A DNA stretch of 39,641 nt from an uncultured Acidobacteriota bacterium (GTDB lineage Bacteria > Acidobacteriota > Terriglobia > Acidiferrales > 2-02-FULL-67-57). This document shows positions 10,130-39,641 of this stretch, one piece after another (the stretch's first letter is position 1; the number at the start of each line of letters is the position of its first letter). The position numbers were made by a program, and so were the translations under genes. The stretch lies in assembly GCA_964441645.1 (NCBI GenBank), contig CAYTXK010000001.1:1-39641 (forward strand), given 5' to 3'. The notes under the pieces were generated by a model. The model was not told the origin of the DNA, did not search any database, and saw only the letters and a program-made list of their open reading frames with translations.

Positions 10130-11308
10130 ATGAGGCAAGCGGTCATCGTGAGCGCCGTGCGGACGGCGATTGGCAAATTCATGGGGACGCTGGCGCCGTT
10201 TTCGGCCCCCGCGCTGGGCGCCCAAGTGGTGGCGGAGGCGGTGAAGCGGGCGGGCGTGGAGCCGGAGAGTGTTAACGAGATCATTATGGGCAACGTGGTG
10301 TCGGCCGGGCTGGGGCAGAACCCGGCACGACAAGCCGGGCTGCGTGGCGGGTTGCGGCCGCAGGTGGCCGCCATGACCATCAACAAGGTTTGCGGCTCGG
10401 GCTTGAAGGCGGTGGCGCTAGCGGCGCAGGCCATCGCCACCGAAAACGCTGAGGTGGTGGTGGCAGGCGGGATGGAATCGATGAGCAACTGTCCCTACAT
10501 CCTGCCCAAGGCCCGCGAAGGCTTCCGCCTGGGCCATGCGCAGTTGCTCGACTCGATGATTACTGACGGGCTGTGGGACGTCTACGAAGATTTCCACATG
10601 GGAATCACGGCCGAGCTGGTGGCCGAAAAATACAAAATCAGCCGCGAGGAACAGGACCGCTTTGCGTTAGAAAGCCACCAGAAAGCCGTGGCGGCTGGCA
10701 AGGAGTGCCGATTCGAATCGCAAATTCTTCCGATCGAAATTCCGCAGAAGAAGGGCGAACCCCTGCGCTTTACCAAAGACGAGTCGCCCCGCGAAGACAC
10801 GACGCTCGAAAGGCTCGCCAGTTTGAAGCCGGCCTTCAAGAAAGACGGCACCGTAACGGCCGGGAACGCCCCGGGGACGAACGACGGCGCGGCGGCGCTG
10901 GTAGTGACGTCGGAAGAGTGGGCGGCGAAGAACGGCAAGACGCCGCTGGCGCGCATCGTCGGCCAGGCGGTGAGCGGGGTCGAGCCGCGCTGGGTGATGA
11001 TGGCGCCGGTAGATGCCATCAACAGCCTGCTGAAGAAAATCGGCTGGACCCGCGACCAAGTGGACCTCTACGAGCTCAACGAAGCCTTTGCCGTGCAGGC
11101 GCTGGCGGTGATGCGCGAGTTGCAGCTCGACCCCGCCCGGGTGAACGTCAACGGGGGCGCGGTGGCGCTGGGTCATCCCATCGGAGCCAGCGGCGCGCGC
11201 CTGCTGGTGACGCTCCTGCATGAGATGGCGCGGCGGAAGGTCAAGCGCGGCATCGCGGCGCTGTGCCTGGGCGGCGGCAACGCCGTAGCTCTGGCGGTCG
11301 AGCGCTAG
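10130..11308 (+). CDS. acetyl-CoA C-acetyltransferase (thiolase II)
   Basis: [14 protein letters not shown] precedes the ATG. The active-site Cys is in [10 protein letters not shown], and [16 protein letters not shown] and [10 protein letters not shown] are present. Confidence 0.95.
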
Positions 11309-16608: not shown

Positions 16609-18624
16609 TCAATGTCCGGAAGGGGGGAGGTCGAGGGCCGGGTTGCGCGCGAAGAAGTTGTAGGGCCTGAGCTCAAACTCGTGCCAACTGGTCGGCGTCA
16701 CCGGCCAGTCCTCCGCGCGCGGCACGTGGTGCAAGCCCACCGTGTACCAGACCACCAGGTCGGTGTTTTCAATGGGACGGTCGGCGCTCGTCCAAGCCGG
16801 CAAGCCGTCGCCGCCCTTGCTCTGCGTGATGTACTCGCCGGCCGCGTGCCGCTCGTCCGGCCGGTAGGGCGTGACCCACAACTGGTATTGGCTGAAGCCC
16901 GCGCGGCGCTGCGGGTAATCGTCAGCCGAGAGCAGCGTCATGGCGTTGTGTCCCGGCCTGATCTCGTAGCCCACCGGATAGCCGAGCGGATTCTTCACAT
17001 TCGGATTCACCACGCGCCACACCGCCGGCTTTTCCATGCTGATATGCAGCTTGGCCTGCTGCTCGGTGCGCAAAGTCTCCGGCGTGGCCACCCAGAGGCT
17101 TTTGCGGGGATGGCTGTCGGGCAGCCGCTCGGTGCGGAGCTGATCCTGGATGAAGCTGTTGGTAATCCCATCCACATCCAGGTCGAGACGAAAAGAAAAG
17201 AAGTGGTCGTGGTTTACCGCCACGGTGTTCTCAGCGATAAAGCGGCCGTAGGCCTGGGCGCGGCCGTCGTGATCTTCGGCGGCGGTTCGCACCGCGACCG
17301 CCTTAACGGCGTCAATCCCGGTCACCGCCACCACTACCTTGATGGTGCCGTCCTGCAGGAACACCCAGTCAAACAGGTAGTCGTAGTTGCCGAAAGTGGC
17401 GATGGTCCGCAGCACCAAGTCGCGCCGGCGGCGGCTCTCGACGATGTCGTCTTCGCCGCGGTGCCGCCAGGCCATATCACCAGCGTAGCGCTCGAACAGG
17501 CAAACGGCGCGGCGCACGCGGTGCGGGATGGCGCGCTCGTCGGCGTAGACATTGTCGAAGTAGACGGCGTTCTCCGGGCAGTCGCTAGCGGGCTCGAGCG
17601 GAGTGCCGAAGCCGAAGAAGGGAAACTCGCCGGCATCGAAGTACGTCCAGTGGTACCAGCCTTCGTTCGGGTCCATGTAGGGAACAAAAATTTCCGAGAG
17701 CGATCCCTGGTAGAGCACCGAGCGCGCCTGGTCGCCCTCGGCATAGCGCACGGTCGAGACTACGAGCCCAACCCGCGGGTCGAGGCGGAACTGAAAGCTC
17801 CACTTCTGCCAACTGACTTCGTGACCGCTGGCGCGAAAGCTCGGCCCCAGCGGTTGCTCGACCCGGAGCGGCGTGGGTATTTCGCGCAGCGGCCCGATCA
17901 ACTCGGGGGCGTAGTCCGCCGCCGTGCGCGGCACGGGCACGGGGCCGGTGTCAATGATGCGCAGGACCTTTTTCGCATCGGCATCCCAGAGCACGATGAG
18001 GCCTTCAATGGGCCGCGCATCCGGGTTCCAGGTGCCGCGACTGTCCGTGCAAACCACGCGTTGGAGTCGCCGCCCTTGCTCTTCTGGCGTGCCGAAGTAA
18101 CCCGGCGAGATGCCATAGCAGTGCACCGTCTCGAAATCCGTGATGCCGCGGCGGCGCATGGCCGCCTGCCAGTCCGAGTTCTCCTTCACGGCCTCGCCGG
18201 CGCCCCGGAGCTCCTCCATCGTCAGATTGGGCTGCACATCTTTGATTTCTCGCCAGAGAACCGTTTTGCGGGCGCTCAGATCCACGACCACTTCGTAGGT
18301 CTTGGTCTCTTGCCGGATTACCGCCAGGGCCTCGCGCGGGAACGCCTGCCCGGGCTTCCACCGCAGCACTTCCTCCTTGGGCGGCTCGTGCAGGGTGATC
18401 AGCGAGTAGCGCGTTTTCTCATCGGTGCGGCCCGAGGCTTTCATCACTTCAAATAGCGTCCAGAACTCCGGACCCGTCAGGCCATCCAAGGGGTGCTGGG
18501 GGGACTGCGCCGCGGCCGGAGCGGCGAACGCCGCGACCAGAACCAGCACGATCACGCCAGTCGGCAGGCGGTGCTTCCGCTGCGGCCGGTCACTGAACCA
18601 ACCGGGCAGGCTCGCTCTGTGCAT
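16609..18624 (-). CDS. copper-containing primary-amine oxidase (topaquinone cofactor)
   Basis: ATG 18624 is preceded by GGAGGA and gives a signal peptide (..VIVLVLVAAFAAPAAAQ). The TPQ consensus T-x-x-N-Y-D-Y is present (ATFGNYDYLF). His ligands lie in VGLHHVPRAEDWPV and NHDHFFSFRLD. Confidence 0.92.
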   Translation of the reverse strand: MHRASLPGWFSDRPQRKHRLPTGVIVLVLVAAFAAPAAAQSPQHPLDGLTGPEFWTLFEVMKASGRTDEKTRYSLITLHEPPKEEVLRWKPGQAFPREALAVIRQETKTYEVVVDLSARKTVLWREIKDVQPNLTMEELRGAGEAVKENSDWQAAMRRRGITDFETVHCYGISPGYFGTPEEQGRRLQRVVCTDSRGTWNPDARPIEGLIVLWDADAKKVLRIIDTGPVPVPRTAADYAPELIGPLREIPTPLRVEQPLGPSFRASGHEVSWQKWSFQFRLDPRVGLVVSTVRYAEGDQARSVLYQGSLSEIFVPYMDPNEGWYHWTYFDAGEFPFFGFGTPLEPASDCPENAVYFDNVYADERAIPHRVRRAVCLFERYAGDMAWRHRGEDDIVESRRRRDLVLRTIATFGNYDYLFDWVFLQDGTIKVVVAVTGIDAVKAVAVRTAAEDHDGRAQAYGRFIAENTVAVNHDHFFSFRLDLDVDGITNSFIQDQLRTERLPDSHPRKSLWVATPETLRTEQQAKLHISMEKPAVWRVVNPNVKNPLGYPVGYEIRPGHNAMTLLSADDYPQRRAGFSQYQLWVTPYRPDERHAAGEYITQSKGGDGLPAWTSADRPIENTDLVVWYTVGLHHVPRAEDWPVTPTSWHEFELRPYNFFARNPALDLPPSGH

Positions 18625-20186: not shown

Positions 20187-20798
20187 GTGTACACACGTTT
20201 GATCGGTCAGGGCAGCCGCTGGCTGCTGGAGAAGATTGTCGCCGGTCTGGCGGCCACCGGCATCCATCCCAACCTGCTGACCCTGCTGGGTCTGGCGGTG
20301 AATACCGTGGCCGCGGTTTTCTTCGCCCGCGGTGATTTTCGCTGGGGCGCGGCGGTAATCTTCCTGGCGGGTTTCCTCGATATCGCCGATGGTCAGGTGG
20401 CGCGCAAGCAGGGACGGGTAACGGCCTTCGGCGCCTTTTTTGATTCCACGCTCGATCGCTACTCCGACATGATGCTCTATCTGGGTTTGTTGATCTATTA
20501 CGCCAAAATCGGCCGCTTCCTTTACGTGGTGCTGGCCATCGTCGCCATGGTGAGCTCCTTCATGGTGAGCTACTCGCGCGCCCGCGCCGAATCCATCATT
20601 CCCACCTGCAAGGTCGGCTTCATGGAGCGCCCCGAACGCGTGGTTCTGCTGATTTTGGGCGGCCTCTTCAACCGCATGGCGCCGGTGCTGTGGACGATTG
20701 CCGTGCTCGCGACGCTGACCGTGACTCATCGCATCGCCTATACCTGGCGCGAAACCCAGGCCGGCCGTGTGCTTCCCGGCTTGCGTCTTCCTGCCTAA
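20187..20798 (+). CDS. CDP-alcohol phosphatidyltransferase family protein
   Basis: The family signature D-x2-D-G-x2-A-R-x8-G-x3-D-x3-D is written DIADGQVARKQGRVTAFGAFFDSTLDRYSD. It is a polytopic membrane protein. Its stop is 11 nt from the stop of the convergent acyltransferase gene. Confidence 0.88.
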   Translation: MYTRLIGQGSRWLLEKIVAGLAATGIHPNLLTLLGLAVNTVAAVFFARGDFRWGAAVIFLAGFLDIADGQVARKQGRVTAFGAFFDSTLDRYSDMMLYLGLLIYYAKIGRFLYVVLAIVAMVSSFMVSYSRARAESIIPTCKVGFMERPERVVLLILGGLFNRMAPVLWTIAVLATLTVTHRIAYTWRETQAGRVLPGLRLPA

Positions 20799-20809
20799 CT
20801 CTTCTCGGC

Positions 20810-21559
20810 TCACTCACCGTCCCGGCGGCGCTCCAGGGCCTCGTGAACCGGTTGGGCCACAGTTTCATGGACCCGCTGCTGGAAGGCTTCGACCTCGTCG
20901 CGTGCCATCCCCCGGGTTTCGAGAGTGTCGTGGAGGTAGACGGTTATCGTGGCGGGGTGGAGCATCCAGTCGCCGGTGCGGAACCACTCGAAGGCGCCGA
21001 CGATGCTCATCGGCACCACCGGGTACTGGAGATGAGGCAGCATGCGAAAGACACCTTCCGCAAACGGGCCCATGCGCCCGTCCCGCGTGCGCGACCCCTC
21101 CGGAAACACAATCACGCTGATGCCGGCATCAAGGGCTGTCCGCGTCCGCCGCAGCAATTCCTTGAAGGTTGCCAGGCTGGCGGTGTTCTCCGGCACCGGA
21201 ATGTTGCCGAACTTTCCCATCATCCAGCCGTAGGCGGGAATGGTGAAATGCGTCTCCAGCTCCCAGCCGCGCACGAACTGCGGAATCGCGGAATAAATAA
21301 CGAAGGCATCGAAAAGGTTCACGTGGTTGCAGATGAACATACTCGTACGCTCGGGGTCAAAGCCGGGCGCGCGCCGCACTTCCAGCCGCGCCCCCGCCAG
21401 ACGGAGGATGTTGCGGAAGAAGACGCGCTGCGGCCAGTCATTCTTGCGGGGATCAATCACCAGCCCCAGCAGCACTAAAAACGTGCAGACCGGGAAAAAA
21501 TGCAGCGCGCTGATGACCCACAAGAACAGACAGCGAACCACGAAGTAGGCTTTTCTCAT
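20810..21559 (-). CDS. lysophospholipid / 1-acyl-sn-glycerol-3-phosphate acyltransferase (PlsC/AGPAT family)
   Basis: N-terminal TM helix. H-x4-D motif (CNHVNLFD). FPEGSRTRDG motif. Confidence 0.88.
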   Translation of the reverse strand: MRKAYFVVRCLFLWVISALHFFPVCTFLVLLGLVIDPRKNDWPQRVFFRNILRLAGARLEVRRAPGFDPERTSMFICNHVNLFDAFVIYSAIPQFVRGWELETHFTIPAYGWMMGKFGNIPVPENTASLATFKELLRRTRTALDAGISVIVFPEGSRTRDGRMGPFAEGVFRMLPHLQYPVVPMSIVGAFEWFRTGDWMLHPATITVYLHDTLETRGMARDEVEAFQQRVHETVAQPVHEALERRRDGE

Positions 21560-21590
21560 GCTCCTGAGGGGCGCGGCCGGAGGGACTCGC

Positions 21591-23300
21591 TCACAAGCCC
21601 ACCACGGCGCTGCGGTCGAGGCGTTTCCGAATTTCCTCGGCCAGCTCGCGGCGCTTAATCTTGAGAGAAGCGGTCCGAGGGAAGTCTCGCTCCCAGAGCA
21701 CCGTGCCGCGGATGCGCTTGAAGTCCGGCAGGCGGCGATTGCGGAGGATCAAGTCGTTGCGCAGGGCGTCGCTGACCGACTGCCCGGGCTCCAGATGCCA
21801 CACCAACACGAGCTGCTCTCCGCCCAGCCCGTGCTGCGGCCACAAGTAGTTGGCCGCAAAGAGGCAAAACTCCTTGACGGGCAGGCCCTCGAAAACCGTC
21901 TCGATGTCCTCGGGATAGATATTCTTGCCGCCTTCAGTGACGATCATGTTCTGCTTCCGGCCGAAGAGTTGCAGGTGGCCGCTGGCGTCCAACCGCCCGA
22001 GGTCGCCGGTCATGAGCCAGCCGTCCACAATCGTTTCCGCGGTCAACTCCGGATCGTCGAGATAGTGCGACATCACCGTCTTGCTACGCACGGCGGCTTC
22101 GCCGATCCCTTCCGAATCCGGATTGACAATCTTAACTTCCATCCCCGGCAGTGGTTTGCCCACCGTATCGGGGCGAAAGGGATTGAAATCATTCAAGGTC
22201 ACCGCTGTCCCGGCTTCCGTCAGCCCGTAGCCGTTGGCCACAGGAATCCCCAGGTCGTAGAAGAATTGCAGCGTGGAGGCCTCGGTAAAGGCTCCGCCCA
22301 CGAACAACGCTCGCAACTCGCCGCCAAAAGCCCGGTGGATGTCGCCGAGCAGCCACCGGCTCAGCTTCAGGTGGGGCCGCTTGCGGGTCAGCAGCCGGTT
22401 CAACCCAACCAGGGCGTCAAGAATAAATCGCTTGTGAGACGGGAGCGCAGCGAATCTTTCCTTCAGGCCGCGTTCCAGGTTCTTGAGCACCAGAGGAACC
22501 AGGCTCATGTAAGTAATCTTGTAGCGCGGAAAAGCCTCGCGCACGTACTCGGGCCGCAGGGTGCGCAGATGGACTACCGCTGCGCCACAAACAAAAGGCC
22601 CGATGAAACCCACCATGAAGTCAATGGCGTGGTTGGTGGGCAGGATGCTCAGGTAGCGCACCCCGGGCCAGAAGGGATAGAGCGCCGTGAGGGCGATGCA
22701 CTGCTCGAGATAATTCTCGTGCGTCATCACGCAGCCCTTGGGCCGCCCCCCGGTGCCGGAGGAATAGACGATGGAGGCCCAGTCTCCCCGGCCACGCCGC
22801 ACGATGAGAGGGTTCCCTTTGCCTTTGGCTTCCTCCCAGCGAAACGCTCCCGCCAGATCAGCTCCCGGCGGTGCCTCGGTGACCCATACGGTCTCAAGGC
22901 TCGTGCCCTCGACGCCTCCGGCCGCCACCAGCGCGCGCCAGAGATAATGCTCGATGATGAGCACGCTCGCCTTCGAGTGCGCCAGCAGCGCCCGGTGCTC
23001 CTGCGGGGTCAGCTTGAAGTCGAGCGGCACCAGCACCCCGCCCCGGTAGAAAATCGCGCAGGCTGAAATCAGCCACTTGGACTGATTGCTCATCAGGGTG
23101 GCTGCGCGATGGTCGGGACCGAAGCCCCGCTCTTCTAACGCCCCGGCCAGCGGCAGGGCGGCCTCTTTGAACTGTCGGTAAGTGAGCCGGGTGTTCTCCC
23201 GCTCGCGGTCGGCTTCGATCAGGCAGACTTCGTCGGCCCAGCGCTCCAGCGCCTCCCGCAGCGCCTCCCCCAGCGACTCATATTTGCTCAAGTCCAGCAT
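21591..23300 (-). CDS. long-chain acyl-CoA/acyl-AMP ligase (ANL superfamily)
   Basis: AMP-binding motif [30 protein letters not shown] and C-terminal [10 protein letters not shown] are present. Confidence 0.9.
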
Positions 23301-23315
23301 TGAATAACGGAGTGA

Positions 23316-23321
23316 ATTATA
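23316..23321 (-). promoter_or_regulatory. -10-like TATAAT, 15 nt upstream of the ligase ATG (possible internal promoter, short leader)
   Basis: The minus strand reads ..cactcTATAATtcactccgttattcaATG. I see no good -35 element and no SD. Confidence 0.25.
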
Positions 23322-23386
23322 GAGTGCCTGTCATTCCGAGCGGAGCGAGGAACCTGCTTTTCCTCTGTGTCTCTGCGCCTCAGTGG

Positions 23387-23629
23387 CTAAAGGCGGGCTT
23401 GAATCCGCTCGGCGAGAGTGCGGAAGTCCGTCACCCCTTGCAGCTCGTAATCAGGCAGCTCGATGCCGAAATGACTCTCGATCCGCGTCAACAGCTCCAG
23501 GGCCTGCAAACTGTTGATCCCCAGCTTTTCGAAGAAGTCGTCGTCCGGCGAGAGACTCTCGCGGGGCACGGTGAAATGCTGGGCCGTCAAATCGAGGATT
23601 TCTCCCAAGGTCTGCGGCAAGGTTCGCAT
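23387..23629 (-). CDS. acyl carrier protein
   Basis: 80 aa. The phosphopantetheine attachment context is FFEKLGINSLQALELLTRIE, followed by a helix-rich acidic tail. Confidence 0.8.
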   Translation of the reverse strand: MRTLPQTLGEILDLTAQHFTVPRESLSPDDDFFEKLGINSLQALELLTRIESHFGIELPDYELQGVTDFRTLAERIQARL

Positions 23630-23649
23630 CTCAGTTCATCCTCATCGTG

Positions 23650-24453
23650 TCATGGTAAATAAGGCAAGGGGTCTTTGCTTTCCACGAACTTGCGCAGGCC
23701 GGCCTCGACGGCCGGCCGCGTGAACAGGTCGCAGAAAATCTCAATCTCGCGCCGCATCTCTTCGTAGGGGATGGGCTTGAGAAACTGTTTGGCGGTGGCG
23801 CTGGTCAGCGGGTCGAGCTTCCTGAGCTGCGCGGCCGCGGCGCGAGCCACGCGCAACGCTTCTCCCTCGGCGGCCACCTGGCTCACCAGGCCGACCGAAA
23901 GAGCCTTGCTGGCATTGAGGCTGCGCCCCGTCAGCAACAGGTCGCGCACCACCGCGTTCCCCAGGTCGCGCTTCAGCCGCGGAATGCCGCCAAAGCCGGG
24001 AATCAAACCCAGGCGAAGCTCGGGAAAGCAAAAGCGGGTCATCTTGTCGGCAATAATCAAATCGCAAGCTAGCGCCAGCTCAAATCCTCCCCCGAAGGTC
24101 ACGCCGTGAACGGCCGCAATCGTCGTCAGCGGAGAGGAATCGATGAAGTTCAGCACGCGGTGGATTCGCTGGAGAAAATCGCGCACGCCCGCCACCCGCG
24201 CCTCCGGGGAGGCTTCCTGCGAGCGGGTGTAGAGCTCCCGGAGGTCCGCCCCGGCGCAGAACCCCGCCGCCAGGGTGCTGTGGACGATCAACACCCGCGT
24301 CCTGGCCGGCACGGAGGCCAGTACGTCCACAAACTGCTCAAGCTCCGCCAGCGTGGCCGAGCCCAGTTCGTTGCAGGGAGGCCGGTGGAGCGCCAGCTCC
24401 AGCACGGCGTCCACCACACCCCAGGACAGCGTTTTGCCGGTGAATTGAGTCAT
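23650..24453 (-). CDS. enoyl-CoA hydratase/isomerase (crotonase) family protein
   Basis: GFCAGADLRELY, AAVHGVTFGGGFELALACDLIIA and PELRLGLIPGFGG are present. Confidence 0.9.
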   Translation of the reverse strand: MTQFTGKTLSWGVVDAVLELALHRPPCNELGSATLAELEQFVDVLASVPARTRVLIVHSTLAAGFCAGADLRELYTRSQEASPEARVAGVRDFLQRIHRVLNFIDSSPLTTIAAVHGVTFGGGFELALACDLIIADKMTRFCFPELRLGLIPGFGGIPRLKRDLGNAVVRDLLLTGRSLNASKALSVGLVSQVAAEGEALRVARAAAAQLRKLDPLTSATAKQFLKPIPYEEMRREIEIFCDLFTRPAVEAGLRKFVESKDPLPYLP

Positions 24454-24467
24454 TGAGCGGACGGCCT

Positions 24468-24497
24468 ATTCTAATGAGGAGTAGGAGGAGTAGGCAA
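24468..24497 (-). promoter_or_regulatory. possible internal promoter (TTGCCT-18 nt-TAGAAT) upstream of the crotonase gene
   Basis: On the minus strand TTGCCT is at 24497..24492 and TAGAAT at 24473..24468, 14 nt before ATG 24453. The spacer is made of the tandem 9-mer at 24477..24494. Confidence 0.3.
24477..24494. repeat. tandem 9-nt repeat AGGAGTAGG x2
   Basis: It reads directly as AGGAGTAGGAGGAGTAGG in the 76-nt gap between the ligase and crotonase genes. Confidence 0.7.
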
Positions 24498-24529
24498 CGT
24501 TCTCCCGCCACTCCACGGTCTAGCCATCT

Positions 24530-26191
24530 TCAGCGACGGTACAGCTCCTCCACCTCCGCCTGATAGCGCGCCACGATGGCATCCCGCTTCAGCTTGCCGT
24601 TGGCGGTCAGGAGCCCGTTTTCGATGCTGAAGGGTTCGGTAAGGACTCGGAAGGCGTGGACTTGTTTGTAGTGCGGCAGGCTTGTGTTCAAAGCGCCCAA
24701 CGCCGGCTCCACCTCCCCGTGGCTCACCGAGCCCGTGACCAGCGCCGCCAGGTGCCTCCGGCCGTTCCCCACCAGCATCACGTGTTGCGCTCCCGTGAGC
24801 AACTGTCCCAGCATCTCCTCCAGCGGCTCCGGAGCAATGTTGTGACCCGAACTGAGAATGAGAAGATTTTTCACGCGCCCGATGATGCGCCAGTTGCCCG
24901 CGGCGTCCCTCTCCCCCTGGTCGCCGGTGTGGAACCAGCCGTCGCGCAGAACCCTCGCCGTCTCCTCCGGCCGCTTCCAATAGCCGGGAAAAATGTGCGG
25001 GCCGCGAACCAGAATTTCGCCGCTCTCGCCGAGCTTCATTTCCGTTCCCGAAATCCCGTACCCCACCCAGCCGGGCTTGATTCGACCGGGAATGTCCATA
25101 GTGCAGATGGCAGTCGTCTCGGTCAAGCCATAGACCTGCAGGACCGGCAGGCCCAACATAAGAAAAAATAGTTGGGTCTCCTCGACCAAGGGCGCCGAGC
25201 CGCAGATGAGGGCTTTCAGGTTGGGGCCTAACTTTTTCCGAATAGCCGGAAAAATCGCGGCGCGAGCTAAGAAAAGCCAGAGGGAGTCGAGAAAGCGTAC
25301 TTCGCCGGACTGCTGCTTGAAAAAGGCATGTTTTGCCTTTGTGAAAAGCGCCTTCGCAAAACCTCCGCGCTTCTCAAGCTGGTCTTCGACGCTCTTTCGC
25401 ACTCTCTCCAGCAAGGCCGGGACATTGAGGAAGTACTGTGGCGCGGCTAGGGCCATTTCTTCAGGCAATTTGGTCAGATCCGTTGAGAGCGTGATGGTAC
25501 TGTGGCGGGACAGGCAGGAAAGCAAGAGAATCCATGAGCCGGCAAAGCAAAAGGGCAGGTAATGGAAGACCTGCTCCGGGGCGGACTGCGTTCCCATCAG
25601 TTGATCGAGCCGCTCGGAGGTGCAGCGCAGCATGTGGTTGAGGTTGCCAGCGGTCAGAACCACTCCCTTGGCCTCGCCTGACGTCCCAGAGGTATAAATA
25701 ATCGTCACCGGGTCAGAGTCGGCTAGCGCGCCGGGGGTTTCGCTCATCTCCTTCGCCGGCCGGGCGGAAGAGAACACCTCGTCGAAAAGAAGAAGAGGAG
25801 GCGCCTGGGGCCAGAGCGATTGAATACTCTTCCGCAGCGATTCATCGCCGCAGCACACCAGAGCCGGGGCGCTGTCTTTCAGCATGGCGACCAGCTCCGC
25901 CGGCGCCTGCCGGGCGTAGAGCGGCACCACCACTCCGCCTTCGGCCATAATCGCCAAATCCAGCGCGGCCCAGCCAATGCTGTTGTGGGCCAGCAAAGCG
26001 CCGCGGTTGCCTTTCTGAAAGCTCTTTTCCGCCAAGAAGGCGCGCGCGCGGCCAATCAAAGCCAGCAACTCTCCGCCGGTCGCGGAGACAATGCGACCCT
26101 CGCGCACCTCTTGGAGAACAGGCCGCGCCGCGGATTCACGCAGGCGGCTGAAGATGTGCTCAAGAAAGTTCACGGCAGCCGATCCTTCCAC
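24530..26191 (-). CDS. long-chain acyl-CoA/acyl-AMP ligase (ANL superfamily), second copy
   Basis: IIYTSGTSGEAKGVVLTAGN, VYGLTETT, HTGDQGE and C-terminal ANGKLKRDAI are present. Confidence 0.9.
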   Translation of the reverse strand: MEGSAAVNFLEHIFSRLRESAARPVLQEVREGRIVSATGGELLALIGRARAFLAEKSFQKGNRGALLAHNSIGWAALDLAIMAEGGVVVPLYARQAPAELVAMLKDSAPALVCCGDESLRKSIQSLWPQAPPLLLFDEVFSSARPAKEMSETPGALADSDPVTIIYTSGTSGEAKGVVLTAGNLNHMLRCTSERLDQLMGTQSAPEQVFHYLPFCFAGSWILLLSCLSRHSTITLSTDLTKLPEEMALAAPQYFLNVPALLERVRKSVEDQLEKRGGFAKALFTKAKHAFFKQQSGEVRFLDSLWLFLARAAIFPAIRKKLGPNLKALICGSAPLVEETQLFFLMLGLPVLQVYGLTETTAICTMDIPGRIKPGWVGYGISGTEMKLGESGEILVRGPHIFPGYWKRPEETARVLRDGWFHTGDQGERDAAGNWRIIGRVKNLLILSSGHNIAPEPLEEMLGQLLTGAQHVMLVGNGRRHLAALVTGSVSHGEVEPALGALNTSLPHYKQVHAFRVLTEPFSIENGLLTANGKLKRDAIVARYQAEVEELYRR

Positions 26192-26206
26192 CGTCGCGAC
26201 AGCGAC

Positions 26207-27613
26207 TCAGTCGTAGGTCTCAACCAATCGGCGCAGGGTCGGGCTGAGCGGCGGCAAGTAGTCCTCCCAGCCCGCCACCCCGCGCCGGACGGGAAACTCC
26301 GGGTATTGCCGCTGCACTTGTTGCTCGAAGTAAACCCCCATCCGCGCCATAGCCTTGAGATTTTTGACGACGGTGCGGCCCATGGCCTCGCGGATATCGT
26401 CGCGCTCGCGCTCGAGCCTGTCCAACGCCGCCAGCAACTTCGCTTCCAGCTCCGGGTCACTCACATCCAGCAGAAGATGCGCCTGGCCGAGCTCGTGCAT
26501 CAAGTTCCGGATGCGCTCGTCCATGCTGACCCCGACTGCCGGCACCAGCGCCGGCATGGATGTGACGATGCCGTGGTAACGCGAAGAAACCATCAACGCC
26601 CCGCAGCGCAACAGGCTGACCAACTGGTACATGTCGTAGTCTTCCGAAGTAAACACCGGCGCCCGCAGCCGCTCCCCGAGCCAGGCGCACGCTCGTTTGT
26701 CGAGCCGTTCCGTTCCCACCACAATCGGAAAAACCGACCGGTCGCGCCGGAACCGCTCCGCGGCGTTCCCCCAGGCTGCCAGGTACCGCTCGAACGCCGC
26801 CTTCTGCTTCGCCCCCCAGGTGTGAAAATAAATCGTCCGGTACTGGCTCTCCTTGTAGGCGCCGGTGAGCGTGCGTGCCGCCAGCTTCAGCAGCGACGGC
26901 CGCACCGGCCAGAAAAACGGATTGATGGGGCAAAGCACCAGCACAGGCTTCTTTTCATCCCAGCCTGCTTCCCGCAGAACCCGCCGGCCGTAGTCGGGCC
27001 CCTGCGGCTCGAAGGTCCAAGCGGTGTCCGTGCCCCATTCTGTGGGCACGCCCAGTTCGCGCAGGACACCGCGAGACTCCTCGTTGCGGGTAATCACCAG
27101 AGAGTTTCCGCAGTACCGCCGCACCATTTTGCGCAGCGCGCCGTCCATTTCGCCTGCCTCCGCGCCGTAGCCCACCGAAAGCTTGTTCTGGGCGGCGGCG
27201 ATGCCGAGCGAGCCGATCATCATGGTCGTCAAGGCGTTGGCGAATTTGCTTTTGAACATCGAGCCTTCGCAGGCCACCACCCCGTGGTGCTTCGGCACCT
27301 CGCGGTAGAGAAACGGCGGGAAAACGTCGGGCAGCCTGACCTGCGTGGCCCCGGCAAAGTAACCCCGCGTCCGCTCGAAGTTTTGCGTCATCACCGTCAA
27401 CTCGACGTTCTCGCGCCCTAGCAGGCACGCCACCTGCCGCAGCATCTCTTCCACCCGCACGTCCGAGCCGGTGTTGCGCGTGCCGTTGTAGCCCGCGAAC
27501 AGGAGCTTGAGCTTGGTTCCCGGGGTCCACGGCTGCCCGAACCCCAGAATCCAGGTGAGCTTGGAGGTCTCAATCAGCAAGCTGACCCAGGCCTCCAGCA
27601 CCAGGTCCATCAT
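26207..27613 (-). CDS. polysaccharide pyruvyl transferase-like (PS_pyruv_trans / GT-B-like) protein
   Basis: ATG 27613 overlaps the upstream TGA (ATGA). It has an N-terminal [20 protein letters not shown] (family pattern G-x-x-G-x-x-N-x-GD) and a C-terminal [26 protein letters not shown] (family pattern S-x-R-x-H-x-x-I..G-x-P..). The assignment is by eye only. Confidence 0.6.
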
Positions 27614-28746
27614 CCGGCGGCTTCTCCGGCGGCGCTCGGCCATTCGCGGTAGTGGTAGGTGAAATGGTTCTGCTGGCTGAACCGCAGCAAGGGGTAGGCG
27701 TATTCGGAAAAGGGCTTGGGAGCGCGGCCGAGTTCCGTCACCACGCGCGTATTATCAAAAACCGTGTTCCACACCAGGTAGGGAAAAAAGACCCGCAACA
27801 GGGAAGCGCCATAGCCGACGGGCGTCCCGCGCCAATGGGAAAGCCCGTTTACGAGCCAGCGAAACGGCGCCTCCAGGCCGGACCAGAACACGGGTCCGGG
27901 TTTCCCCCGCGCCGCCGCCAGCGCCCCGGTCAACTCCCGGTAGGTCTGGGAGCTTCGCCCCGAGGCGAGGTGGTAGGTGTCGTAGGCGGGCTTTTCTTTC
28001 TGGGGCAGGGCGACCACGGATTCGGCCACAAAATCCACGGGAACAATATCGACCCGGTCGATGGCCCGGAAAGGCAGCACCGGCAAGCCGGCCAGAAACA
28101 CGAAAGCCCGCACCATATCGAACTGGGTGGTTTGGGGGCGGCGACTGTCCCCGAGCACGATGCTGGGCCGGAAGATGGTACGCGGCACGTCGGGCAGCAA
28201 CTCGCGAATCATGTGCTCGCAGAACTTTTTGGTTCGGGCATAGGGGTCGTAATCGGAGCGCTCCCAGTCAATCGCCTTGTCCTCTTCGACCACCTCATTC
28301 TGGCGGTGGCCGGCCACGGCCACGGTGCTCACATGGCTGAAGCGGCGCAGCCCGTGGTGGTCGCGCGCGCCCGCCGCCAGCTTGATCACCTCCAGCGTGC
28401 CGCGCAGGTTGACGTTGAGGCAGCTTTTTTCCGACTTGCGGTTCAGCGAGGCCGCGCAATGAATCACCGACTCGGTCGACTCCGCCAGGCGCCGGTAGGC
28501 GTCCCCCGCGCACCCGAACCCCAGTTCGGTGATGTCGCCGCGGACGATGGTTATCCGCGAGCGCAGGTGCTCATAAAAGCGGGGGAAGTCCAGATGCAGC
28601 TGCAAGGAGCGCCAGAGCCGCTGTTCGGCCTCGCGGTTGTCCCGGGCGCGCACCAGCAGATTGAGCCGCGTCGTGTGCCGCTCCAGCAACTCGGCCACGA
28701 TGTGCGCGCCGATATAGCCTGTGGAGCCGGTTACGAAGATGGCCAT
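27610..28746 (-). CDS. thioester-reductase-type SDR (NAD_binding_4 / 'male sterility' family) acyl reductase
   Basis: Rossmann motif [14 protein letters not shown], then [21 protein letters not shown] and catalytic Y-x3-K (YARTKKF). It overlaps the upstream gene by 16 nt. Confidence 0.85.
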
Positions 28747-31127
28747 GTGGCTTCAGGAACTAGGGGTGAGCGGGCGCGCCCCGCCTCTCCGGACGAGGCC
28801 GGGCCGGGAGACGCGGCGGGCCACTGGAAGCTGCGGGGAGGTCGGCTCTCGAGCGGGCGCCCTTCCATCAGCGGATAGCACCAGCGCCGCAGCGCCGGAA
28901 CATGAACGTTGATCCAATACTCCCACCAGTCAATCGCGCCGGGGTCGTAGCCAAAGGCTTCCCGCTCTTCCGTCGGAAGGGCGGCGGCCAGGAGCTCGAC
29001 GTTGTCCGCCTCGAAGACGTGCTCGTTGTAAAGGATAAAGGGCTCGTAGAGCTCGATGAGCTTTTCAATGCGCTCCAGGTCGCGTTCCCGGCGGGCGAAG
29101 GGCGGGCGCCGCAGCAAAGGCCCCGTCAGGCGGTTGATGCGGTGCACAAAGGCCTTTTGCGCCGGGGCCGAGAGCGTGTCGTAGCGCTGCTTCGACACCG
29201 GAATGGTATCGAAGCGAGACCGCAGCCAGTGCTCCAGCCCTTGCTGGGCGCGATAATGCTTGCGGTGGGCCAGGCTGGTCAGCTCGATGGAGCGCCGCAT
29301 ATCGCAGGGGTTGATGTCGGAGGTAGCCAGCTGATAAAGCCGCTGCTGCCGGCGCTCCACCAAGGCCGCGGCAATCAGCATCATCCCCCGGCACACCAAA
29401 TCCACTGGGATCAAGTCCAGACATTTTCTCACGTTAGTCGGCAGTTGCCGGAAATACGTCCCCAGCAAATACGAAAGCGGCGCCGAGGTGTTGATGCCTT
29501 CGTTCCAGCCCGGAAGCGGCGGCCCCACCGAGGTCTCGACAATCGAGGGCCGCACAATGGCCACCGGCAAGTCCGCGCCGCGCTTCTCGATCAAGGATTC
29601 GGCCAGACTCTTGGTAAGAGTATAAGTGTTGGGCCAGCCGAGCTCCTGGGCGCGGCGCGTCCCCAGATCGGTCAAGCGCGTCCGCAGCCAGCGGCGACGG
29701 TAGCGCCGCACGTGCTCCTCGAGCGCGGCGCCGGCGAGCTTGCGGCTGGCGGTCTTTTCCAGCGCCAGCCGCTCAAGCTCCTGGCTGACTTCGGGGCTTT
29801 CGGCTTCGGCTTGCAGCTCCTTCACGCGCGCGTGCAGCGAATGCCACTCCTGCTCGGCGTCGAAATCGCGCAGCTCGGCGGGCGTGTAGTTGGGCTCGAC
29901 CTCCTCGCTCACTCTCCCGTCGCGGCTCCCCACCACGTAGCACGTCGAGAGGTGCAGCAGGGCGGCGTGGTCGCACTCGCGCAGAAAATCCAGCAGGTGG
30001 ACGACGGCGTCCACATTGGCGGCCAGGCCCAGGCGCAGCTCGGGGTTGAATTCCGTCAGGCCGGAGCTGTTCACAATCAAATCGAGGCTCCCGGCCAACC
30101 GGGCACGCGTCTCGGGCGCCAAGCCCAGGTCGGGCTGGCTCACGTCCCCCTCGACCACTTCAATCCGCTCAGCGAGAAACCGGCCCAGGTCGTCGCCGTA
30201 CCGCTCGTGGAAGGGGTCGAAGATGGGCGATTCCTCGACGATTTTCTCGAAGCGCCGCAGCGCCGTCGTCGAGCGCTGGCGGCGAATCAGCAGGTGGAGC
30301 CGCCCGATGGCGGGCAAGTCCGCCAGCGCCTTGGCCAGCCACACTTTTCCAATAAAACCGGTGACGCCGATGAGCAGAACGTGCTTCCCTGCCAGCGACT
30401 CGCGCACCGATAACCGCTCGACTCTTTTCTTGGCCTCGAACACCACCAGGACTCGCTTGCGGGGCGCCAGGCGACGCTCGGCGGGCTCGACCGCGGCCCG
30501 CACAATCTCCGCTCGGCCCGCAAAACCCAGATTCCGCGCCAGCTCCTCGAGCGCAATGCGCCCGTCGGGGCCGACCCGCAGCAGCCACGCCAGGCCGCCG
30601 CGGGGTCGAATGACCGGATCGAGAAGCCTGCCGGTGGCGCGCCCGTCGTGGAATTCCAGGCGGTTCGCCACCAGGCGCTTGACGCCGAGAAAATTCGCCA
30701 GCGGGCGCATCACATGGTCGAGTCCCTGGCTGACCAGGACTACGGAGTCATTTTCGGCCAGGACTTCGCGGAGTTTTTCGACCCCGGCCGGCTTGAGCTT
30801 GGGCTTCATAACGTACTGAAAATATTCTTCACCCAGAAGGTCGAGGCGGTCTCGGCTCACCCCGCGCAGCAAACCGTGCAGCACGCGCGTGGCAAATACG
30901 CGGTGGGCGGCGTAGAGAAAGGGGCGCACCACGGTCAGCGCCGCCAGGCCGCCGCGGCGCCCCCAGCGCTCGGCGAAGCTCTGGGCGTTCCAGGTGAAGA
31001 ACGCTACCGGACGCACGGCGCTCAGGTTCAGCAGGCTTCCTTCCACCCGCCAGAAGATTTCGCGGGTGGGCGGAACCTCTCGACCCGGAGCGGACTGATC
31101 GTGGTTAGAGAGACTCACGGCTCGCAC
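28731..31127 (-). CDS. fusion protein: degenerate HAD-IB-like N-domain + fatty acyl-CoA/ACP reductase (FAR; NAD_binding_4 + sterile-type C-domain)
   Basis: The N-terminal ~215 aa is HAD-IB-like ([43 protein letters not shown]), but motif I reads FWRVEGSLL. From aa ~248 the Rossmann motif [13 protein letters not shown] appears, followed by [20 protein letters not shown] and Y-x3-K (YTLTKSL). There is a long C-terminal domain. GTG start. Confidence 0.8.
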
Positions 31128-31187
31128 TTGATCCTGGCACTCGCAGTGATTCTCCCGCTGTCCCGGCGGCGGGATTCGCTGGCCGCC

Positions 31188-31217
31188 ATTCTACTAGAGG
31201 AGTGCGCCCCCTTCCAA
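31188..31217 (-). promoter_or_regulatory. promoter candidate for the lipid operon (TTGGAA-18 nt-TAGAAT)
   Basis: On the minus strand TTGGAA is at 31217..31212 and TAGAAT at 31193..31188, about 60 nt upstream of GTG 31127. It lies in the 164-nt divergent region shared with the amidase gene. Confidence 0.35.
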
Positions 31218-32761: not shown

Positions 32762-35605
32762 GTGGGTTTCCGGCTGATGAAAAGTTTGTCCACCCGTCTC
32801 GTCTTTTTGCTGGCTCTTTCAGGCGCGTATCTCTATGCCTTCCCCGCGGCCACTATTTCCTACGGATTGCTGGTTCTTTTCCATTTGGCCGCGGGAATGG
32901 GATTGGCAGTGATTCTTTTCCCCCGCTTGTGGCGACGCTTGCCCGCGGATTCTGCTCCCGCGCGTCTGGGCTGGCTGCTGCTAGCTGTCGGCGCCGCCAT
33001 CGGTTTGGCGCTCATCTACACGGGCACGCCCCGACCCTATCAAGGTTGGCTCTACGCGCACATCGCGGCCAGCATGAGCGGAGCAATCATCCTCCTGGCT
33101 GAGTGGGCGCTGGCGCGCGGCTGGTTCGCCTCCCGGCGGCTGGCAGCATACGTCGTTCTGCTCGTTACCTTCGTCGGGCTTTCGGCCGCCGCCTGGGCTT
33201 TTCGTGAAGTCCGTTGGCAGCGCCGCTATCCCATTCGGAACCCGGCCATCCCTCCCGTCAGTATGGACGGCGAAGGCGACGGCCCTGCCGGGCCTTTCTT
33301 CCCCAGCTCGGCGCAAACGCTGCACGGCGGGAAAATACCCGCCCGCTTCTTCCTGCAGTCGCAGGCCTGTCAGCGCTGCCACCCGGCCATCTACGAGCAG
33401 TGGTCGAGCTCCGCCCACCGTTTTTCGTCCTTCAACAACCAGTGGTACCGCAAGAGTATCGAGTACATGCAGGACGTAGCCGGCGTGAAGGCGTCCAAGT
33501 GGTGCGGCGGCTGTCACGATCCCGCTGTGCTCTTCACCGGCATGATGGATACTCCCATCAAAGAAATCATTGACAGCGAGGAAGCCCACGCCGGGCTGGG
33601 CTGTGTGATGTGCCATTCCATCGTCGCCGTCAAGAGCACGATGGGCCAGGGCGACTACGTGCTGGAATACCCGGCCCTGCACGAGCTGGCAACGAGCGAG
33701 AATCCCTTTCTGCGCACCCTGCACGACTTTCTGACCAAGGTCAACCCTGAACCCCACCGCCGCACTTTCCTGAAGCCTTTTGTGCGCAACCAGACCGCGG
33801 ATTTCTGCTCCGCCTGCCATAAAGTCCATCTCGATGTTCCCGTGAACCACTACCGCTGGATTCGCGGCTTCAACGAATACGACAACTGGCAGGCCAGCGG
33901 CGTCTCCGGACAAGGCGCGCGCTCTTTTTACTATCCGGCGCGCCCCCAGAAATGCGCTGACTGCCACATGCCGCTTGTGCCGGCCAACGACCTAGGAAAC
34001 ATCAAAGGCATGGTTCACTCGCACCGCTTCCCGGCTGCCAACACCGCCCTGCCCATCGCTAACCAGGACTCGACACAGTTCGACGTCACCGAAAAATTCC
34101 TCCGCGACAATATCGTCAGCGTTGACATCTTCGCCCTCTCCCCGGCTTTGGCCCCCGCGACCTCCGCCGAGCTGCGGCCTCACGAACTGTCCACTACCTT
34201 CGCGGTCGGCGAAGAAGCCGAGAGTCTGGCCGCCCCCGCACCCGCCCGGGAAGCGGTTCCCGTCACCGCTCCGCTCGACCGTGCGCAACCTCTGGTCCGC
34301 CGCGGCGACACCCTCCGTGTGGACGTCGTGGTGCGCACCCGCAAAGTCGGACACTTCTTCCCCGGGGGAACCGTAGACGCTTTCGATGTGTGGCTGGAGC
34401 TGAAGGCCACGGATGAAAAAGGGCAAGTGCTCTTCTGGAGCGGACGGCTAGAGGACGACGGCAAAGGGCCAGTGGAAAAAGGAGCCCACTTCTACCGCTC
34501 CTTGCTGGTCGACGCTCATGGCAACCCCATCAACAAGCGCAACGCCTGGGCGGCCCGCGCTGTGGTGTACGTGCGCCTGATCCCGCCGGGCGCGGCTGAC
34601 ACGGTGCACTACCGCCTCGCCATCCCTGACAAAGCCGGCGAGCGCATCAAACTCCAAGCGCAGTTGCACTATCGAAAATTCAGTTGGTGGAACACGCACT
34701 TTTCCTTCGCCGGCACGCGCGACCCCGGCCATCTCAACCCAGACGTCACCCCCGATTACGATGACGGCCGCTGGGTGTTCACGGGCGATACCTCGAAAGT
34801 TTCGGGCAAACTCAAGCAGATTCCCGACTTGCCCATCGTTACCCTCGCCCAGGATGAGGTCGAGCTGCGCGTGGCCTCGCGCGGGGCCAAGGCTCCCGAG
34901 CCGCGGCCGGTGCTGGAGGCCGACGATTGGCAGCGTTGGAATGACTACGGCATCGGCCTTTTCCTGCAAGGCGACCTGCGCGGCGCCGAGGCGGCCTTCC
35001 TCAAGGCCACCGAAGCCGACCCTAAGAACCCCGATGGCTGGGTCAACGTCGGCCGCGTCCGCGTCCAGGAAGGAAATTTGGCCGGGGCGCGCGAAGTGCT
35101 GGAGCGCGCGCTCTCGCTCGGCCCGCGCCTGGCCCGCGCTCACTTCTTCTACGCCAAAGTCTTGCGCGGCGAAGGCCGCTACGAGGAAGCCCTCGAACAC
35201 CTGCGGCAAGTGGCCGAGCAGTATCCGCGCGACCGCGTGGTGCGCAACGAAATCGGTCGCATCCTTTTCCTCGACCGGCGCTACCCTGAGGCCGTGGAAG
35301 AATTCCAGCGCGTGTTAGCCATCGATCCCGAAGACTTGCAGGCGCACTATAACCTCATGCTCTGCTACAGCGGCCTGGGCCAGGAAGATCTGGCGCGCCA
35401 GCACGAGAAACGCTATTTGCGCTTCAAGGCCGACGAGGCAGCTCAGACGATTACCGGCCCTTACCGGCGTCTCAACCCCGAAGACAACAACGAGCGCCAG
35501 GCCATCCACGAACACGTCTCCGTTCCTCTCGACAAACTGAACCCCAAGCGCCCGCCCTACCGCGTTTCTGCGGGCGCGCGAAAACCCTCCGCACCAACCG
35601 ATTGA
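32762..35605 (+). CDS. membrane-anchored pentaheme c-type cytochrome domain fused to C-terminal TPR repeats
   Basis: There are about 5 N-terminal TM helices. Five CXXCH motifs lie between 33368 and 33967: CQRCH, CGGCH, CVMCH, CSACH and CADCH, the first followed by W..SSAH as in the cytochrome c554/multiheme family. The C-terminal TPR repeats include AEAAFLKATEADPKNPDGWVNVGRV... The start is GTG 32762 or ATG 32777. Confidence 0.85.
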   Translation: MGFRLMKSLSTRLVFLLALSGAYLYAFPAATISYGLLVLFHLAAGMGLAVILFPRLWRRLPADSAPARLGWLLLAVGAAIGLALIYTGTPRPYQGWLYAHIAASMSGAIILLAEWALARGWFASRRLAAYVVLLVTFVGLSAAAWAFREVRWQRRYPIRNPAIPPVSMDGEGDGPAGPFFPSSAQTLHGGKIPARFFLQSQACQRCHPAIYEQWSSSAHRFSSFNNQWYRKSIEYMQDVAGVKASKWCGGCHDPAVLFTGMMDTPIKEIIDSEEAHAGLGCVMCHSIVAVKSTMGQGDYVLEYPALHELATSENPFLRTLHDFLTKVNPEPHRRTFLKPFVRNQTADFCSACHKVHLDVPVNHYRWIRGFNEYDNWQASGVSGQGARSFYYPARPQKCADCHMPLVPANDLGNIKGMVHSHRFPAANTALPIANQDSTQFDVTEKFLRDNIVSVDIFALSPALAPATSAELRPHELSTTFAVGEEAESLAAPAPAREAVPVTAPLDRAQPLVRRGDTLRVDVVVRTRKVGHFFPGGTVDAFDVWLELKATDEKGQVLFWSGRLEDDGKGPVEKGAHFYRSLLVDAHGNPINKRNAWAARAVVYVRLIPPGAADTVHYRLAIPDKAGERIKLQAQLHYRKFSWWNTHFSFAGTRDPGHLNPDVTPDYDDGRWVFTGDTSKVSGKLKQIPDLPIVTLAQDEVELRVASRGAKAPEPRPVLEADDWQRWNDYGIGLFLQGDLRGAEAAFLKATEADPKNPDGWVNVGRVRVQEGNLAGAREVLERALSLGPRLARAHFFYAKVLRGEGRYEEALEHLRQVAEQYPRDRVVRNEIGRILFLDRRYPEAVEEFQRVLAIDPEDLQAHYNLMLCYSGLGQEDLARQHEKRYLRFKADEAAQTITGPYRRLNPEDNNERQAIHEHVSVPLDKLNPKRPPYRVSAGARKPSAPTD

Positions 35606-37309: not shown

Positions 37310-39641
<2,332 letters not shown>

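Follow-up and report, generated by a model that had tools for sequence, protein, structure and literature searches.

We analysed a 39,641-nucleotide stretch of DNA, hereafter the window, from an uncultured bacterium of the Acidobacteriota (contig CAYTXK010000001.1 of assembly GCA_964441645.1, positions 1 to 39,641 of the forward strand). Eight co-directional genes on its minus strand form a single unit running from 31127 to 20810, an operon for stand-alone acyl-activating enzymes, reductases, a carrier protein and an acyltransferase, parts of which appear to be related to the elb ether-lipid genes of Myxococcus xanthus. The list of open reading frames (ORFs) bore out this layout, which the original prediction had described, and all nine of its domain labels agree with Pfam and NCBIfam assignments; its guess of an acidobacterial host holds as well. 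From the first gene of the operon to the gene that faces its end, the locus contains:

28731-31127, minus strand: HAD-like::FAR fusion, a HAD-like domain joined to a fatty acyl reductase (FAR), 798 amino acids; Pfam HAD, NAD_binding_4 and Sterile.
27610-28746, minus strand: stand-alone thioester reductase of the non-ribosomal peptide synthetase/polyketide synthase (NRPS/PKS) terminal-reductase type, 378 amino acids; NAD_binding_4, 165 bits.
26207-27613 (468 amino acids) or 26207-27643 (478 amino acids), minus strand: pyruvyl-transferase-like protein; PF04230 PS_pyruv_trans.
24530-26191, minus strand: ANL ligase 1 (ANL1), 553 amino acids; AMP-binding and AMP-binding_C_3.
23650-24453, minus strand: crotonase-fold enoyl-thioester hydratase, 267 amino acids; ECH_1, 138 bits.
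23387-23629, minus strand: stand-alone acyl carrier protein (ACP), 80 amino acids; PP-binding, 52 bits.
21591-23300, minus strand: ANL ligase 2 (ANL2), 569 amino acids; AMP-binding, 221 bits.
21560-21590, minus strand: junction of 31 nt between ANL2 and PlsC, the site of a kinase gene in relatives.
20810-21559, minus strand: PlsC/AGPAT-family acyltransferase, 249 amino acids; PF01553, 61 bits.
20187-20798, plus strand, convergent: CDP-alcohol phosphatidyltransferase, 203 amino acids; PF01066 CDP-OH_P_transf.

The recomputed junctions agree with those reported earlier: a 16-nt overlap, an ATGA overlap, then gaps of 15, 76, 20, 86 and 31 nt, with the stop of the convergent CDP-alcohol transferase gene 11 nt from the operon end. 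The ATGA overlap holds if the third gene starts at 27613, where the surrounding letters are GGATGATGG; a recorded 468-amino-acid protein that is 100% identical to the product of this gene begins at the ATG of 27613. The promoter-like match proposed at 31217-31188 did not survive, as it is at chance level (three such sites in the region against 1.3 expected). A sigma-70-like match at 24468-24497 on the minus strand (TTGCCT, 18 nt, TAGAAT) falls within the 76 nt that separate ANL1 from the crotonase gene and is likewise at chance level; if it is an internal promoter, the operon could be transcribed as two units. As had been stated, the operon encodes neither a ketosynthase nor an acyltransferase-loading enzyme or dehydratase, and for this reason we rejected a fatty acid synthase or PKS reading. 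A role in beta-oxidation was also rejected, because the operon contains no dehydrogenases or thiolase; the thiolase gene of the window (10130-11308) lies 10 kb off and is unlinked in relatives.

To define the conserved extent of the operon, one genome per GTDB species was scanned for relatives of the 798-amino-acid fusion protein. At least 336 species matched, and the best 80 of these 336 (L001-L080) were compared with the window by tblastn with the window proteins. Among these 80, a seven-gene core (HAD::FAR, thioester reductase, pyruvyl-transferase-like protein, ANL1, crotonase, ACP, ANL2) was colinear and complete in 60 of the 68 loci whose flanks were long enough. The remaining eight had insertions that displaced genes beyond the retrieved stretch, or single unrecognised genes. 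Core proteins share 52-80% amino-acid identity across relatives, with medians of 61-74%. Groundwater contigs with independent gene calls have an identical core order, with overlapping stops and starts. Homology searches returned a 100% identical record of the fusion protein and more than 5572 relatives (protein clusters) at 64-75% identity, nearly all from metagenome-assembled genomes (MAGs) of Acidobacteriota or from soil metagenomes. The pyruvyl-transferase-like protein has more than 7687 family members, all annotated 'polysaccharide pyruvyl transferase family protein'. Because the core order is kept in 60 of 68 loci, we conclude that the operon is a strongly conserved, real unit, beyond chance.

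The best 80 of the 336 relatives are all labelled Acidobacteriota, bar a few labels that look wrong. The operon was found at 63-71% identity on contigs labelled Dormiibacterota, Heliobacteriaceae, Clostridia and Candidatus Xenobia (L015, L030, L034, L040, P0069 and P0484). These labels probably reflect mis-binning or mislabelling, with horizontal transfer as the alternative.

The downstream end of the operon differs between the window and its relatives. A gene for a DAGK/YegS-type lipid kinase (~300 amino acids, DAGK_cat plus YegS_C) follows ANL2 in each of the 61 relatives whose downstream sequence extends to 1 kb or more, and tblastn found no such kinase anywhere in the window. The window is the sole one of 62 comparable loci (from L001-L080 and L163-L165) without a kinase between ANL2 and the next gene. 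Comparison with the relatives thus indicates that the window copy has lost an otherwise constant member, by a removal that looks clean and left 31 nt. The pathway of this organism may rely on a kinase encoded elsewhere or end at a different product. PlsC, counted in the original prediction as a constituent of the operon, turned out to be an accessory, with orthologues in 14 of 60 related loci; a PIP-synthase-like orthologue follows PlsC in eight (PIP, phosphatidylinositol phosphate). Both genes are confined to one sub-lineage, where they are positioned after the kinase. The conserved unit is the seven-gene core plus the lipid kinase, and PlsC and the PIP-synthase-like gene are lineage-specific add-ons.

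In the window, PlsC has the HX4D (NHVNLFD) and FPEGSR motifs, and the CDP-alcohol transferase has an intact D-x2-DG-x2-AR-x8-G-x3-D-x3-D motif. Among NCBIfam models the latter scores highest against archaetidylinositol-phosphate synthase, at 158 bits, and PIP synthase, at 135 bits, short of their respective cut-offs of 180 and 170, and its best solved matches are PIP and phosphatidylinositol synthases (82-84 bits). No inositol-phosphate synthase gene was found within the window. A different arrangement occurs in ~45 Terriglobales-type loci, where a conserved 141-amino-acid protein without a Pfam match, a VKOR-family protein and often an esterase come, in this order, after the kinase on its own strand (141-amino-acid/VKOR extension at 20476-21383 in L044, 20494-21377 in L074 and 20618-21325 in L023). 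This set may be an alternative downstream extension of the operon.

The degree of conservation and the constant kinase bear on what kind of product the operon makes. Clusters that antiSMASH-type analyses call 'NRPS-like' are usually read as natural-product clusters, and the operon holds a ligase, a carrier protein and an MxaA-type terminal reductase. The product of a dissociated NRPS-like set of this kind could be a specialised metabolite outside the membrane, for instance a lipid aldehyde, a signal of the lipid-alcohol type or another small natural product, and related elb-like clusters are classed as NRPS-like biosynthetic gene clusters (PMC9426513). We nevertheless regard such a product as rather improbable: the gene order is kept at 52-80% identity in at least 60 species and the family runs to thousands, which is unusual for accessory clusters; the lipid kinase is always linked, and one lineage adds phospholipid enzymes; and the genes surrounding the operon (among them those for RecA, Lgt, IleRS and a penicillin-binding protein) are housekeeping genes.

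The first gene of the operon encodes an ElbB-like N-terminal domain followed by a FAR of the alcohol-forming type (NAD_binding_4 plus Sterile). Over residues 25-173, the fusion shares 34-36% identity with ElbB (84-94 bits, E 1e-21 to 1e-25), whereas the best solved HAD protein scores 31 bits. In place of the ElbB motif I, FYDVDGTL, the domain has FWRVEGSL (RVEGS versus DVDGT), which is invariant in 120 orthologues. It also stops short of ElbB motif IV (DSFSD), which is missing. Neither the DxDxT nucleophile motif nor the acidic residues of motif IV, by which HAD phosphatases are recognised, occur in this N-terminal domain. The ElbB-like domain, its catalytic aspartates lost, therefore looks like a pseudo-phosphatase and cannot act as a conventional HAD phosphatase. 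Since it lacks the catalytic residues and is still highly conserved, it is probably a non-catalytic binding or docking module.

The remainder of the fusion looks like an intact enzyme. Residues 239-756 match a solved FAR (7eoz, 166 bits, the best solved FAR), and the FAR part is 34-38% identical to the N-termini of ElbD-type proteins (292-375 bits). The Rossmann motif (GVTGFIG) and the YxxxK motif (YTLTK) are intact, and Sterile scores 39 bits, over its cut-off. With both PF07993 and PF03015 present, this part is predicted to be a fatty acyl reductase of the alcohol-forming class, whose product may be an alcohol or an aldehyde. An exhaustive search with the 798-amino-acid protein, which covered 1.84 billion representatives, found two kinds of next-nearest relatives: stand-alone FARs at 37-45% identity, and 31 proteins of 1200-1640 amino acids that have the exact ElbD architecture by Pfam.

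In M. xanthus, ElbA is of the NAD-epimerase type, ElbB is HAD-like, ElbC has no assigned function, ElbD has the domain order FAR, ACS, ACP, AGPAT, and ElbE is again of the NAD-epimerase type; deletion or disruption of elbD stops ether-lipid formation (PMC9131029, PMC13012113). We compared the operon with elb by way of Hoch_3248, the ElbD homologue of Haliangium ochraceum, and two Myxococcales MAG clusters. Hoch_3248 is one of the 31 ElbD-architecture proteins, and in Haliangium ElbD is followed by a short-chain dehydrogenase/reductase (SDR). The two Myxococcales MAGs encode, in order, a HAD protein (230 amino acids), a Lar_N protein (536 amino acids), ElbD and an SDR (324-337 amino acids). A metagenome scan with an ElbD alignment (generic peptide patterns) gave ordinary ligases for the most part, the ElbD-like exceptions being L082-L085; L083 and L084 yielded an ElbE-like SDR and a Lar_N protein, and no ElbB. 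ElbC corresponds to a Lar_N (PF09861) protein in three canonical contexts (L161, 5076-6686; L162, 5357-6967; L083, 7727-9328). As a protein related to the N-terminal part of lactate racemase, ElbC hints at alpha-hydroxy-acid-type substrate chemistry in the elb pathway.

Three modules of the acidobacterial operon stand out in this comparison. Like the FAR part and the ElbB-like domain, ANL2 matches its Elb counterpart: it aligns along its whole length with ElbD-like adenylation domains at 30-33% identity (233-269 bits, against ~120 bits for the best solved ligases), and by homology it is the counterpart of the ElbD adenylation (ACS) domain. Because FAR, ANL2 and the HAD-like domain score two to three times as high against Elb proteins as against their best solved homologues, the homology of these three to Elb proteins is, as judged by sequence comparison, specific and goes beyond superfamily membership. 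ANL1 resembles ElbD less than ANL2 does, scoring 111-166 bits with the ElbD-like adenylation domains. The operon and M. xanthus elbA-E (MXAN_1531-1527; MIBiG BGC0000871) thus have in common a FAR module, an ElbD-type adenylating module, a carrier protein, an ElbB-type HAD-fold module and an arrangement as a single co-directional cluster, together with a PlsC-family acyltransferase that this window shares and that is optional among its relatives.

The differences are as marked. M. xanthus has one ElbD of ~1500 amino acids, a separate ElbB, a Lar_N ElbC and an epimerase-type ElbE, whereas the acidobacterial operon has its modules as separate genes, an ElbB-like module fused to FAR with its catalytic aspartates lost, no Lar_N protein, and an NAD_binding_4 thioester reductase. 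Its core adds a crotonase, a pyruvyl-transferase-like enzyme and a further ligase, and that of its relatives a lipid kinase as well, none of which occurs in M. xanthus elb. The operon is best read as sharing ancestry with parts of elb while forming a distinct pathway.

Among the other core enzymes, the thioester reductase scores 137 bits against Thioester-redct TIGR01746, its best solved match is the myxalamid reductase MxaA (96 bits), and its Rossmann (GSTGYIG) and YxxxK (YARTK) motifs are intact. In Pfam, both this reductase and FAR also match epimerase and dehydratase models. For ANL1 the best NCBIfam models are the long-chain ligase FadD11 and malonyl-CoA synthase, both far under their cut-offs; among solved structures it matches best to MatB, a malonyl-CoA synthetase, and to the adenylation domains of carboxylic acid reductase. 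We assign ANL1 to no substrate class, because the small-acid structures and the long-chain FadD11 model disagree. The crotonase, whose best solved matches are short-chain hydratases, keeps both catalytic glutamates (GGGFELAL, FPELRLG) and is on that account predicted to be of the true hydratase type. In the ACP, the serine for phosphopantetheine attachment lies within GINSL, and its orthologues are 69-80% identical.

The pyruvyl-transferase-like protein is the hardest of the core proteins to place. Its match to PF04230 is weak and over threshold (34.6 bits, cut-off 25.3), and it scores 60 bits against the CsaB model, far under the cut-off of 213 bits. Neither its single sequence nor a profile of 25 orthologues gave a PDB match. 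An AF2 model built with 56 homologues has a pLDDT of 89.8. Foldseek matched this model to GT-B enzymes, namely UDP-GlcNAc 2-epimerases and GT-B glycosyltransferases (TM 0.45-0.64, 10-15% identity), and there was no pyruvyl transferase among the 50 matches listed. The protein is thus predicted from its model to have a GT-B fold, which fits the family assignment and does not reveal a substrate.

These results leave room for the operon to act on the cell envelope, with the pyruvyl-transferase-family and SDR-type enzymes modifying a sugar of a polysaccharide or of lipopolysaccharide and the ligase and carrier delivering an acyl substituent, as in a Dlt-like system. The public annotation of the third gene as a 'polysaccharide pyruvyl transferase family protein', the occurrence of the GT-B fold among sugar-nucleotide enzymes, and the epimerase and dehydratase matches of the reductases would all fit. 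A role of this kind is very unlikely, though: NAD_binding_4 plus Sterile and the full-length match to a solved fatty acyl-CoA reductase point to lipid substrates, the constant partner is a lipid kinase, and genes for a glycosyltransferase, a flippase, a polymerase or export are absent from the window and from the recurrent flank families.

Relatives of the third protein form pyruvate ketals on the 4,6-diol of sugars, which suggests a further alternative: a non-glycerol or ketal lipid. The crotonase would hydrate an enoyl thioester, the reductases would give a long-chain 1,3-diol or a plain fatty alcohol, the pyruvyl-transferase-like enzyme would close a pyruvate ketal on the diol, ANL1 would activate the new carboxylate, and the kinase would phosphorylate one hydroxyl still free. 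Such a route would fit both retained crotonase glutamates, two different thioester reductases, a third gene that is over the PF04230 gathering threshold, an ANL1 whose best solved matches (MatB, carboxylic acid reductase) use small carboxylates, and the dispensability of PlsC in most lineages. It is unlikely all the same. We found no lipid of this kind reported for Acidobacteria in the literature examined, the pyruvyl-transferase match is weak and far under the CsaB cut-off, the fold search gives the general GT-B fold only, and no acyl-CoA dehydrogenase is present to supply the enoyl substrate.

Having considered these alternatives, we propose that the operon encodes an elb-related pathway to a fatty-alcohol-derived, possibly ether-linked, membrane lipid, and put the probability of this reading at about one half. 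Its product would most likely belong to the fatty-alcohol-derived glycerolipids and may carry an ether bond. In the proposed pathway, ANL2 would adenylate a long-chain fatty acid and load it onto CoA or the stand-alone ACP. The FAR domain would then turn the acyl thioester into a fatty alcohol, with the ElbB-derived domain serving as a docking or binding module. ANL1, the crotonase and the MxaA-like thioester reductase would form a second, activate-hydrate-reduce branch, and the GT-B pyruvyl-transferase-like enzyme would join or decorate the two lipid parts, the second of which could be a three-carbon backbone, a diol or a ketal. In almost all relatives, the DAGK/YegS-type lipid kinase would phosphorylate the neutral product; its constant linkage suggests that what leaves the core is a lipid alcohol not yet phosphorylated, for example an alkylglycerol or a diol. 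In the sub-lineage of the window, PlsC would acylate the product, and the PIP-synthase-like enzyme could attach an inositol-phosphate head group.

Known routes to ether lipids offer partial parallels. The animal FAR/GNPAT/AGPS route and M. xanthus MXAN_1676-1674 share with the operon a fatty acyl reductase, a PlsC-superfamily acyltransferase and an SDR. Alkylglycerone-phosphate synthase (AGPS) is absent from the window and from related loci, so we rejected an AGPS-type route, and any ether bond would have to be made differently. The Ger/PlsAR ester-to-ether reductases of the anaerobic bacterial route are likewise a candidate explanation of acidobacterial ether bonds; they belong to unrelated protein families, and nothing in the operon resembles Ger or PlsAR. 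Most ether-producing acidobacterial strains are without Ger homologues (PMC13159169, PMC11868695).

We considered one specific form of this chemistry, in which a fatty alcohol and phosphoenolpyruvate would be the starting materials for de novo synthesis of an alkyl-glycerol-type lipid by the core, with no need of AGPS, Ger or preformed glycerol phosphate. FAR would supply the fatty alcohol, and the pyruvyl-transferase-like enzyme would place an enolpyruvyl group on it, creating the ether bond of a 2-alkoxyacrylate. ANL1, which is akin to small-acid ligases, would thioesterify the 2-alkoxyacrylate, the two-glutamate crotonase would hydrate the acrylyl double bond, and the MxaA-like reductase would reduce the thioester to an alcohol, giving an O-alkylglycerol that the linked lipid kinase would phosphorylate for phospholipid synthesis. 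This scheme would employ every core enzyme exactly once and is our inference throughout. Its predicted product would be 2-O-alkyl, whereas Halamka et al. (PMC10087280) list 1-O-alkyl monoethers, and we hold it to be an attractive long shot.

Several points weigh against a membrane-lipid pathway related to elb. The original prediction held that the operon carries the same four catalytic functions as ElbD; for FAR and ANL2 this is borne out by homology, but the match of PlsC to the ElbD AGPAT domain is weak (35-57 bits) and PlsC is found in only 14 of 60 operons. The match of the ACP to the ElbD ACP is also weak. With PlsC both optional and only weakly ElbD-like, the argument from four shared functions loses force. 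No single multidomain ElbD was found here: the four functions are spread over as many genes, and four more genes separate FAR from ANL2. Whether the accessory genes correspond to elbA-C/E, a question left open earlier, can be answered in part. The HAD-like domain corresponds to elbB, although its catalytic aspartates are lost; for ElbC (Lar_N), tblastn gave no match in the window or among L001-L080; and there is no clear ElbE, the thioester reductase being an NAD_binding_4 MxaA-type SDR, of another subtype than ElbE, whose likeness to ElbE (25-26% identity, 57-59 bits) appears to be only at the general SDR level. The comparison with elb by BLAST and synteny that had been proposed thus yields three homologous modules and four core enzymes without an elb counterpart (the pyruvyl-transferase-like protein, crotonase, ANL1 and thioester reductase), and the roles given above to these four are guesses. 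In the tree of FAR domains, a crude neighbour-joining tree without support values that should be read with caution, the window groups with N-extended and stand-alone FARs, beside the ElbD clade and not inside it.

Further points concern the organisms and the chemistry. The best 80 of the 336 relatives are all MAGs, and no lipid phenotype is tied to the operon. The ether bonds of Acidobacteria have been ascribed partly to Ger/PlsA homologues (PMC13159169, PMC13023045), including those of E. aggregans and S. usitatus (PMC13159169, PMC10087280, PMC13023045), and the formation of brGDGTs (branched glycerol dialkyl glycerol tetraethers) to Tes plus Ger/PlsA homologues (PMC13023045). Clusters of elb genes have been reported only in some subdivision-4 strains (PMC13159169, PMC10087280, PMC11868695), and S. 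usitatus is reported to be without ElbD (PMC10087280, PMC11868695); unlike this published pattern, the operon is common in Terriglobales-type MAGs. Ca. Koribacter versatilis is reported to produce tetraesters only. Finally, elb chemistry is itself unresolved, and therefore the term 'elb-like' does not fix a product.

The closest published relatives are the elb-like families of sponge-associated Acidobacteriota and Poribacteria (PMC9426513; preprint 10.64898/2026.06.23.733905). They share with our operon the phylum Acidobacteriota, homology to elbD and elbB, and an association with glycerolipid genes, and variants with split reductase and adenylation parts are reported there. According to the preprint, elb-like clusters of sponge-symbiont Acidobacteriota adjoin genes for an acyltransferase, a diacylglycerol kinase and a CDP-alcohol transferase. 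The sponge families keep a multidomain ElbD, or two ORFs at most, whereas the operon described here is fully dissociated. The accessible text of the two papers, figures aside, mentions no pyruvyl-transferase-like gene, crotonase or HAD::FAR fusion; some overlap with their 'clade 1' is possible. In the searchable literature, which did not include Sinninghe Damste 2018, we found no characterisation of the operon. Relative to that literature, the new features are the full dissociation, the HAD*::FAR fusion (the asterisk marking lost catalytic residues), the pyruvyl-transferase-like enzyme, the crotonase, the second ligase and the stand-alone thioester reductase.

The genes neighbouring the operon are unrelated housekeeping and miscellaneous genes. 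Among their products are an M48 peptidase, a copper amine oxidase, an amidase, a TPR/cytochrome protein, an FG-GAP/ASPIC protein, RecA, a penicillin-binding protein, Lgt, IleRS, a thiolase and a scramblase. The last (9325-10017, minus strand) is a bacterial homologue of the eukaryote-type phospholipid scramblase family (PF03803, 169 bits), and its gene is translationally coupled to the upstream gene for a UvrD/PD-(D/E)XK helicase-nuclease (6380-9328). Within 32762-37293 on the plus strand, the gene for a 947-amino-acid protein with multihaem-cytochrome-like motifs and TPR repeats overlaps the start of the gene for the FG-GAP/ASPIC (UnbV) protein, a pairing that is common among soil bacteria and unconnected to the operon. 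At the end of the window, two ORFs (37331-37966, minus, 211 amino acids; 38039-39637, minus, 532 amino acids) have no Pfam match. Long antisense ORFs, for example at 16612-18456 and 35557-36996, are most likely artefacts of high G+C content.

Acidobacteria, among the most abundant of soil bacteria, are suspected of producing the brGDGTs that serve as palaeoclimate proxies. How they form ether bonds under aerobic conditions is unsettled, and the operon is a compact, very widespread and partly elb-homologous candidate for this. It amounts to a naturally dissected ElbD, whose single-function proteins could help to resolve elb chemistry. If the core does build alkylglycerol from a fatty alcohol and phosphoenolpyruvate, this would be a new, oxygen-tolerant way to bacterial ether lipids. 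Should the product not be an ether lipid, the operon would still mark an unknown major lipid class of soil Acidobacteria.

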